Positions 11,411 through 12,334 of a stretch of 14,855 nt of DNA are shown in pieces. Under the pieces are notes generated by a model. That model searched no databases. It saw only the letters and a list, made by a program, of their open reading frames with translations, and was not told the origin of the DNA. Where the stretch lies: the UHGV virus genome UHGV-1735138; one strand, given 5' to 3'. The translations under genes were made by a program, and so were the position numbers. The DNA comes from a virus. Numbering within the stretch: the stretch's first letter is position 1; the number at the start of each line of letters is the position of its first letter.

Positions 11411-12334
11411 TTATTGGTTTCTGAGGAAAGCGATTCTTGAAAGGGTCATTTGCGTCTGGCAGTCGACCATTTTCTTGACTTCAGCATCTGTTCCCTGCAT
11501 TGAAACTTTACCGCACATAGCATCCTTAGTTTTGATCCACTGGCGCTGAGAAGGCAGCAACTCTTTTTTCTTCGCCGGGGTTAACTTGCTCCAGACGGTA
11601 TTCAAATCAGAGTCAGCATTTGCAAATGCCATTCGGGACTGATCAAGGCTTTCAGATTTTTGCGGCTGAAGTTGTGCCTGCCTCTCTTTTTGCTTCTCCG
11701 CCTCATACCTGGCCTGTTCCTGTGCCCTGAGTTGCACCTGTTGTTCCGCTTCAATTTGACTCTGTTGGGCATCCTTAGCCTGCTGGATTTTCTGCTGCTC
11801 AACGATCGGGTTGATAATGGAAAGCGATGTCAGTAAAGCGGCGCCCACTGATATCGGATTATCAGAAGAGGTTTTTACAAAAACGTTTTTCTGATCGTCG
11901 GTCGCCTGCACGGTGTAGGTGATACGTTTTGAAAAGGCGTTTGCGTTGTTCTCCAAAAACAGATTTTCCATTTGCTTATCGAGATTACGATTAAAATTCT
12001 TTCTGTAAGCATCAGAAAGCTGGACGTACTCGTTCGCAGGTAGAGTCATCGTCACGGTCCCTTCACAAGTTTTCATTGTGCTGCCCGTGTCACTTGATGT
12101 TGTGGAGATTTCAGAGACGGCTAGTTTGATCTTGTCCAGTGTGCTTCGTTTGGTCTGATTAGTGACATCAGGGTATTTATCGACCTGTTCAGAGAGTCCT
12201 TCATAAGCAGATTTTTTTAATAAATCCATGAGAGCTGATTGGGTCATTTCCGAAGAACAACCGATCTCATCTTTTTTGTTATCACAGCCTGTAAGGGCAA
12301 TGGCGAGTAAGAGTACTGAGTATTTTAATCTCAT
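11411..12334 (-). CDS. Lipoprotein with C-terminal DUF1311-like (LprI-type lysozyme inhibitor) domain (307 aa)
   Basis: Signal peptide plus lipobox MRLKYSVLLLAIALTGC; Q/E-rich coiled-coil linker; C-terminal SQRQWIKTKDAMCGK...DCQTQMTLSRIAFL fits the DUF1311 pattern; opposite orientation to flanking phage genes. Confidence 0.7.
   Translation of the reverse strand: MRLKYSVLLLAIALTGCDNKKDEIGCSSEMTQSALMDLLKKSAYEGLSEQVDKYPDVTNQTKRSTLDKIKLAVSEISTTSSDTGSTMKTCEGTVTMTLPANEYVQLSDAYRKNFNRNLDKQMENLFLENNANAFSKRITYTVQATDDQKNVFVKTSSDNPISVGAALLTSLSIINPIVEQQKIQQAKDAQQSQIEAEQQVQLRAQEQARYEAEKQKERQAQLQPQKSESLDQSRMAFANADSDLNTVWSKLTPAKKKELLPSQRQWIKTKDAMCGKVSMQGTDAEVKKMVDCQTQMTLSRIAFLRNQ

Follow-up and report, generated by a model that had tools for sequence, protein, structure and literature searches.

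We find that the gene at positions 11411-12334 (minus strand) of a 14,855-nucleotide stretch of the UHGV virus genome UHGV-1735138 (hereafter, the window) encodes a periplasmic lipoprotein of the ScwA/LprI family, and we regard the status of the gene as prophage-borne cargo as well established. The open reading frame starts with ATG, fills exactly these coordinates, and encodes 307 amino acids. Its DNA is 100% identical to NC_009801.1 2208926-2209849 from E. coli E24377A, whose product (WP_001237643.1) is named "lysozyme inhibitor LprI family protein" in RefSeq, and its PHROGs match is phrog_5094 (E = 1.8e-183), a family of no known function. Based on domain homology to ScwA of Salmonella Typhimurium, we tentatively propose, at somewhat less than an even chance, that the lipoprotein binds or modulates the cell's own lysozyme-fold murein glycosidases in a ScwA-like manner. 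The LprI-family annotation of the protein and the characterized homolog ScwA were already known; new here are an N-terminal domain that had not been modelled, the link to ScwA, the predicted anchoring in the inner membrane, and a caution about the name "lysozyme inhibitor".

An AlphaFold2 model built from 31 homologs (mean predicted local distance difference test score, 85) divides the protein into a predicted alpha+beta domain (residues about 25-158), a long single helix (160-221), and a three-helix bundle (230-305). The last of these is the C-terminal LprI/DUF1311 domain (residues 230-304; 11423..11647, minus strand), which contains the invariant Cys274 and Cys292. A DUF1311 region had been read from the sequence by eye, and the Pfam profile agrees: PF07007 (LprI, formerly DUF1311) matches residues 230-304 with E = 5.9e-8 and 33.5 bits versus a gathering score of 22, the match spanning profile positions 15-106 only, and most homologs have a precomputed match to the same family. 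In the model, this domain takes up the helical fold of the DUF1311 crystal structure with its conserved cysteines, and its predicted fold neighbor is TsiV3 (PDB 4nsr/4noo), a type VI secretion system (T6SS) immunity protein. M. tuberculosis LprI, E. coli YecT, and P. putida PP0307 (PDB 3gi7) share with the window protein the C-terminal 75 residues, the same predicted helical fold, and the Cys pair; most DUF1311 proteins, however, are small and single-domain. A sequence search of the PDB with the whole protein and with profiles of the N- and C-terminal domains returned no significant chain.

The N-terminal alpha+beta domain (residues 24-178; 11801..12265, minus strand) makes up half of the protein and went unmentioned in the original prediction. 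It holds the invariant Cys26 and Cys90 and two conserved loops, T78-S80-D82-S85-K88-C90 and Q143-x-T145-D146-D147. No model in Pfam or NCBIfam covers residues 24-178, and a structural search with the domain gave no informative neighbor. This conserved domain merits a Pfam model of its own.

Between the two domains lies a helical spacer rich in Q, E, and A (residues 179-229; 11648..11800, minus strand) that extends the helix begun at residue 160. The original prediction called this region a long Q/E-rich coiled-coil linker. Its composition (33% Q, 15% E, and 13% A over residues 178-229) and its predicted helicity stand, but the coiled coil does not, because the hydrophobic residues (just 7 of 52) show no heptad pattern; a single exposed helix acting as a spacer is the better description. 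The length of the spacer is variable, with 79-117 residues between two fixed motifs across the homologs. In the window protein, the helix that joins the two domains is about 62 residues long in the model and would measure about 9 nm if straight. Given the order of anchor, N-terminal domain, helix, and DUF1311 domain, the DUF1311 module may sit roughly at the height of the murein layer.

The protein that best informs its function is ScwA. Salmonella Typhimurium ScwA (SL1344_0490), a periplasmic protein of 275 amino acids, carries its LprI domain at the C-terminus, has four conserved cysteines (C30, C100, C237, and C259), and is stabilized by DsbA-dependent disulfides (PMC7933661). ScwA makes the lytic transglycosylase MltD more abundant and changes several further murein hydrolases; its overproduction for more than 60 min leads to cell lysis, whereas deletion of scwA leaves lysozyme sensitivity unchanged (PMC7933661). 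We identified a piece of the corresponding gene through a weak tblastn match in a phage collection, a 1.6-kb segment of Salmonella chromosome filed as "Salmonella phage S.Kent 1-2-1" (OR851612.1, 1-1607). After repair of one frameshift, this fragment encodes 207 residues, and the spacing of its cysteines (137 and 22) and its 16-residue tail correspond exactly to the published ScwA positions. Tested singly as one target against profiles of the lipoprotein family, the fragment matches with E = 1.4e-22 overall, 2.7e-11 for a broad N-terminal domain, and 2.1e-17 for the C-terminal domain. Because it matches in both domains, we assign ScwA to the same two-domain family as a soluble, stalk-less relative and, as judged from these profile matches, the closest characterized protein.

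Window protein and ScwA thus have both domains in common, with the same four-Cys pattern and a periplasmic location, and both have a low-GC (guanine-cytosine) or horizontally acquired character. The differences are also clear. ScwA is free in the periplasm without a lipid anchor (PMC7933661), whereas the window protein has a lipobox; ScwA has 275 residues and no long Q-rich helix, so that C100 and C237 are 137 residues apart versus 184 for C90 and C274; and scwA is chromosomal, beside a ybaP-like gene, rather than part of a prophage. The relationship needs profiles to be seen, with 33% identity between the C-terminal domains. As to the database record itself, OR851612.1 is a low-coverage, non-phage sequence that holds the 3' two-thirds of scwA (frameshifted near nt 372-393) and the ybaP-like gene of the TraB family, and OR845824.1, entered under the title "Escherichia phage ECO95 1-6-1", is almost the same fragment.

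The comparison with ScwA also bears on the "lysozyme-inhibitor-like" domain of the original prediction and warns against taking the RefSeq name as a function. Membership in the LprI/DUF1311 family is confirmed, but inhibition comes from the family name. In M. tuberculosis LprI, lysozyme inhibition is attributed to an MliC domain, and the LprI domain itself is without experimental support as an inhibitor (PMC7933661). The window protein differs from LprI in lacking that domain: a Pfam scan at E up to 1 found LprI and two sub-threshold matches, and none of the MliC, PliC, Ivy, or PliG domains. Together with the unchanged lysozyme sensitivity of the scwA deletion, this leaves the family assignment standing and the lysozyme-inhibitor label doubtful.

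In enterohemorrhagic E. coli (EHEC), the DUF1311 protein Etsi4 was shown by experiment to rescue cells from the periplasmic toxin Etse4. Immunity functions have also been predicted for DUF1311 proteins whose genes neighbor those of lysozyme-like or transglycosylase effectors in Pantoea, Salmonella Dublin (a single-domain protein of 146 amino acids), and WHIX loci. By analogy, the Etsi4 rescue and these predicted immunity roles support binding of a murein-cleaving enzyme as a recurrent job of the DUF1311 fold. Compared with TsiV3 and Etsi4, the window protein adds the N-terminal domain, the stalk, and the lipid anchor; its gene has no adjacent effector gene, and the protein has no significant sequence similarity to any PDB chain.

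A profile of the N-terminal domain alone retrieves 222 clusters (at 50% identity) among 1.84 billion representatives. In the best 147 of these 222 clusters, nearly all members are lipoproteins of about 280-330 amino acids, with a Cys soon after the lipidated Cys and a further Cys about 66 residues on. In most of these 147, the C-terminal part is an LprI domain whose paired cysteines are spaced by about 21 residues, and a few carry TPR or YARHG domains in its place. Distant members occur in Sphingomonas, Allosphingosinicella, and Paraburkholderia. Two loops are conserved across the distant homologs, (R/S)T-x-K-DPNSTK-x-FC and Y-x-VQPTDDGK, for which the window protein has ISTTSSDTGSTMKTC and YTVQATDDQK. 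The N-terminal domain and the LprI domain therefore define a widespread two-domain lipoprotein family.

Close homologs (67-95% identity) are found in Citrobacter, Enterobacter, Yersinia rohdei, Pantoea, Erwinia, Leclercia, and Pseudescherichia, and orthologs reach about 88% identity in Citrobacter, about 70% in Pantoea, and about 44-50% in Proteus and Morganella. Their genomic contexts differ by genus. In the Enterobacter cloacae complex, the gene lies in lambdoid prophages with differing lysis modules, on the opposite strand and in a slot between the replication/early genes and DinI/RusA/Q. In Citrobacter freundii, it occupies a fixed non-phage site with a Fec-type iron uptake operon on one side and a major facilitator superfamily transporter on the other. 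Pantoea, Proteus, and the P0107 assemblies have it at ordinary chromosomal sites; in Morganella it directly follows an alpha-2-macroglobulin/PBP1C cell-wall operon; and in Yersinia rohdei it is in a variable chromosomal region. Because contexts are chromosomal in some genera and prophage-borne in others, this is a host envelope gene family of which one branch travels as prophage cargo. The original prediction of a phage cargo gene is thus right for E. coli and Enterobacter, but the gene is not phage-specific. The chromosomal orthologs have no conserved partner gene, and the genes that follow the homologs in Enterobacter, Sphingomonas, a metagenome contig (L038), and Yersinia looked mutually unrelated when judged by reading their translations. 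In none of the homolog loci examined were T6SS effector, Hcp, VgrG, or PAAR genes nearby. A scan of 185,579 species genomes gave just 10 close loci, none of them from Salmonella.

Several of these loci carry features of their own. The Morganella morganii ortholog is 300 bp downstream of the operon for a YfhM-like alpha-2-macroglobulin and PBP1C, on the same strand (loci L007-L009, 1393-11002), and is followed by a gene for a 1562-amino-acid Sel1-repeat protein. An Enterobacter lambdoid prophage with the orthologous gene also has an Ivy (PF08816) lysozyme-inhibitor gene in the interval from Q to terminase (locus L010, 5178-5591), a second cargo gene of the murein-hydrolase-inhibitor type in that phage. 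Distant two-domain homologs from Sphingomonas (L037, 199-6634) and from the metagenome contig (L038, 1120-10163) are located in integrase-bearing islands that also encode a ThsB-TIR (Thoeris) gene or a SMODS (CBASS-type) gene.

Where the protein resides can be predicted from its N-terminus. The signal peptide (residues 1-17; 12284..12334, minus strand) reads MRLKYSVLLLAIALTGC, with two basic residues and a 10-residue hydrophobic core followed by the lipobox L-T-G-C, in which Cys17 is the predicted lipidated residue. The LTGC lipobox had been pointed out before, and the family bears it out: a pattern in the style of PROSITE PS51257 fits the window protein, 30 of 31 aligned relatives (the one that fails is truncated at its N-terminus), and 106 of 113 database homologs. 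A [LVI][ASTVI][GAS]C lipobox preceded by a basic n-region and a hydrophobic core is what a lipoprotein substrate would present. The residues after Cys17 are Asp18-Asn19, which places Asp at position +2, a feature that the original prediction had not mentioned. In E. coli, Asp at +2 is the Lol-avoidance signal by which lipoproteins stay in the inner membrane, and Asp, Glu, Gln, or Asn at +3 strengthens it; the window protein has the strengthening Asn. By these sequence rules, Cys17 is predicted to be lipidated, and Asp at +2 predicts that the protein stays in the inner membrane. Among the 106 homologs, the +2 residue is Asp in 93, Asn in 8, and Gly in 5. An NCBIfam scan of the lipoprotein gave nothing above threshold. 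Matches to the entry-exclusion proteins TrbK and VirB7 (NCBIfam, E about 0.08) covered the signal peptide only and fell far under the cut-offs, and weak matches to FliP, DUF7516, and PcxA were every one sub-threshold; we discarded them all.

The prophage origin of the gene, as originally proposed, is supported by its surroundings. The window corresponds to the left arm of a lambdoid prophage at tRNA-Ser(CGA) (14-103), the sole Rfam match in the window, which adjoins the integrase and marks the attachment site. The window encodes a tyrosine integrase (189-1217), a CI-like repressor (5913-6326), YdaT, a DnaB-type helicase (8146-9390), and several small early genes on the plus strand. In E. coli E24377A, the identical lipoprotein gene is in an annotated prophage at the same tRNA-Ser site, beside mtfA, and a 98% copy is in a related E. 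coli prophage at a different tRNA cluster. In both E. coli prophages, the replication genes lie on one side of the gene and the Q antiterminator on the other, and the remaining genes of this slot vary by strain and include those for HNH, GIY-YIG, and DUF262 proteins as well as insertion sequence elements. Among 5426 complete E. coli genomes, at least 80% of the gene is present in 439 (about 8%), in every case on the chromosome, and every E. coli copy that we inspected is prophage-borne. A search of 50,697 deposited phage genomes found the gene in none. Its GC content (44.7%) is close to the window mean (47.2%).

A search of E. coli genomes with the gene alone also gave short exact matches within annotated CRISPR arrays. 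Spacer A, from an array beside cas2e/iap in strain E118, is an exact 32-nt type I-E match to 12303-12334 on the plus strand, with the protospacer adjacent motif (PAM) ATG at 12300-12302. Spacer B, from a 43-spacer array in strain GCM39-10-2-9-3-1, is an exact 32-nt type I-E match to 11717-11748 on the minus strand, with PAM AAG (CTT at 11749-11751 on the plus strand). A third spacer in the same array, two positions away from spacer B, exactly matches 3916-3947 in a 738-amino-acid early gene, with PAM ATG. Using repeat-spacer-repeat queries, we found spacer A in 119-131 and spacer B in about 163 of the 5426 complete E. coli genomes, and the lipoprotein gene is absent from all four spacer-bearing genomes that we sampled. 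The exact spacers show that E. coli met the lipoprotein gene as part of this invading phage and support its mobile status; they are silent on its function. Only rarely can native type I-E spacers of E. coli be assigned to one particular prophage, as these exact matches allow.

Taken together, we suggest that the lipoprotein gene is a lysogenic-conversion ("moron") gene that lambdoid prophages took from an enterobacterial chromosomal gene family. The product would be exported, lipidated at Cys17, and held on the periplasmic face of the inner membrane through Asp at +2. A membrane-proximal alpha+beta module would then present a patch of conserved polar loops and hold a Cys pair within the domain, while the helix of about 60 residues would keep the distal three-helix DUF1311 module, which has a separate Cys pair, roughly level with the murein. 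There the protein may bind lytic transglycosylases or muramidases and change their activity or stability. We propose glycosidase binding because ScwA is homologous over both domains and because the DUF1311 fold resembles that of TsiV3, and the link to ScwA yields a concrete hypothesis, the control or neutralization of murein glycosidases. In our preferred version, ScwA-like action on the cell's own murein hydrolases would tune or stabilize the cell wall of the lysogen; temperate phages would in that case adjust the cell-wall turnover of their hosts. We favor an endogenous role because the chromosomal orthologs are stable without partner genes and because of the two-domain homology to ScwA, and the recurrence of the cargo slot and the opposite strand in several different prophages also counts for this proposal. 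A number of points weigh on the other side. A binding partner has been demonstrated for no member of the family, ScwA included, and ScwA could act on MltD by an indirect route. Identity to ScwA is low, as noted above, and that protein is soluble and has no long helix. The lipidation and sorting of the window protein are predicted from sequence patterns only, and the Gly at +2 in the Proteus/Morganella branch suggests that the membrane of residence varies within the family. Lastly, the defence genes near the lipoprotein gene and the defence islands of the distant homologs fit protection from exogenous enzymes at least as well.

Exogenous targets are favored by that cargo position beside defence genes and by the Thoeris and SMODS islands of two distant homologs, and, if they are the true targets, the family would add a periplasmic layer to prophage-encoded defence. 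Stated broadly, the protein would be an envelope-level immunity factor of prophage defence hotspots, an inner-membrane-anchored stalk whose DUF1311 domain neutralizes incoming tail lysins or T6SS glycosidases at the murein. We consider this doubtful; if true, the two-domain family would be a previously unrecognized class of periplasmic defence proteins. Superinfection exclusion, in which the lipoprotein neutralizes a murein-degrading enzyme among the tail or ejection proteins of an incoming phage or blocks DNA entry at the inner membrane, is unlikely in our judgment. T4 Sp, which neutralizes the gp5 lysozyme, offers a precedent, and exclusion would suit a cargo gene read against the lytic operons and set among PD-T7-5, HNH, GIY-YIG, and DUF262 genes in a variable hotspot, a predicted inner-membrane site that faces the periplasm, a DUF1311 fold that serves to neutralize murein hydrolases, and distant homologs in islands with Thoeris and SMODS genes. 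However, the 45-88% identical orthologs of Citrobacter, Pantoea, Proteus, and Morganella stand singly on the chromosome, each at a fixed non-phage site, the lipoprotein matches neither a PADLOC model nor a solved exclusion protein, and, as noted, none of the deposited phage genomes has the gene. Lambda Bor, T5 Llp, phi80 Cor, and T4 Sp are envelope morons or exclusion lipoproteins of prophages, and the window gene is like them in being phage-borne and probably independently transcribed, and in encoding a putatively lipid-anchored envelope protein that could plausibly interfere with envelope enzymes or receptors. It differs in that we detected no sequence or structural relationship to any of them, and in having close chromosomal orthologs in other genera, which they generally do not.

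If the attacking enzymes came instead from competing bacteria, the lipoprotein could be an orphan T6SS immunity protein that shields the lysogen when lysozyme-like or glycosidase effectors are delivered into its periplasm. The DUF1311 cognate or orphan immunity proteins that adjoin cell-wall effectors in EHEC (Etsi4, which has been tested), Pantoea, Salmonella Dublin, and WHIX loci speak for this, as does the fold neighbor TsiV3, but the absence of effector, Hcp, VgrG, and PAAR genes near the gene in every locus examined and the extra domain, stalk, and anchor, which the small Salmonella Dublin protein (the sole DUF1311 immunity protein of stated size) does not have, make it quite unlikely. 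We assign a similarly low likelihood to a role centered on the N-terminal domain, be it structural or spacing in the envelope or the binding of another ligand at the loops, with DUF1311 merely a stable helical cap. The most conserved positions of the family are indeed the N-terminal loops (DPNSTK-x-FC and QPTDDGK) rather than DUF1311, some members swap the C-terminal domain for TPR or YARHG, and the N-terminal fold has no informative structural neighbor; yet most members keep DUF1311 with its Cys pair, and the ScwA phenotypes point to murein enzymes. Least probable of all is a true inhibitor of animal (c-, g-, or i-type) lysozyme that raises the tolerance of the lysogen in gut, saliva, or phagocytes. 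Although the Pfam family is named for M. tuberculosis LprI and the Enterobacter prophage with the same cargo gene also has an Ivy gene, the window protein has none of the known inhibitor domains, the LprI domain alone is unsupported as an inhibitor and the scwA deletion is lysozyme-neutral (PMC7933661), and an inner-membrane anchor would be an unusual place to intercept lysozyme from outside. We also rejected a spanin or other lysis role: in related prophages the gene occupies the interval from the replication genes to Q, some 9-10 kb upstream of holin and endolysin, its product has no partner and no C-terminal hydrophobic or transmembrane segment, and chromosomal orthologs exist.

The genes on either side of the lipoprotein gene (9600-11198 and 13011-14030) are both on the plus strand, so the opposite orientation originally remarked on is correct. 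The second of these encodes a 339-amino-acid single-gene anti-phage defence protein, PD-T7-5 (PADLOC, E = 1.8e-102; also PD-T7-1-like; phrog_8571). Its GC content is low (35.7%), and a 676-bp AT-rich intergenic region (12335-13010; 38.9% GC) separates it from the lipoprotein gene, the two being divergently transcribed. This region presumably holds the lipoprotein gene's own promoter, and it contains one weak sigma-70-like match, at 12685-12658 on the minus strand; promoter and terminator scans gave weak matches only, in numbers at or below shuffle expectation. T6SS effector, hcp, and vgrG genes were not found in the window. Two further genes of the window, the 738-amino-acid early-left gene (2390-4606, minus strand) and a 255-amino-acid gene upstream of the DnaB helicase (7389-8156, plus strand), have no Pfam match at E up to 0.01; the former is annotated in a related prophage, in part, as an exonuclease family protein.

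A hairpin with 15-nt arms is located 15 nt past the stop codon of the lipoprotein gene (11363..11396, minus strand). It has no T-run and so is not a canonical intrinsic terminator, but it could serve to end or insulate transcripts. A perfect 9-bp GC-rich hairpin (11205-11226), AAGGCCCTG-tgag-CAGGGCCTT, lies just past the stop codon of an 85-amino-acid plus-strand open reading frame (10941-11198). This hairpin has a T-run on neither strand and, together with the one at 11363-11396, brackets the convergent gene ends.

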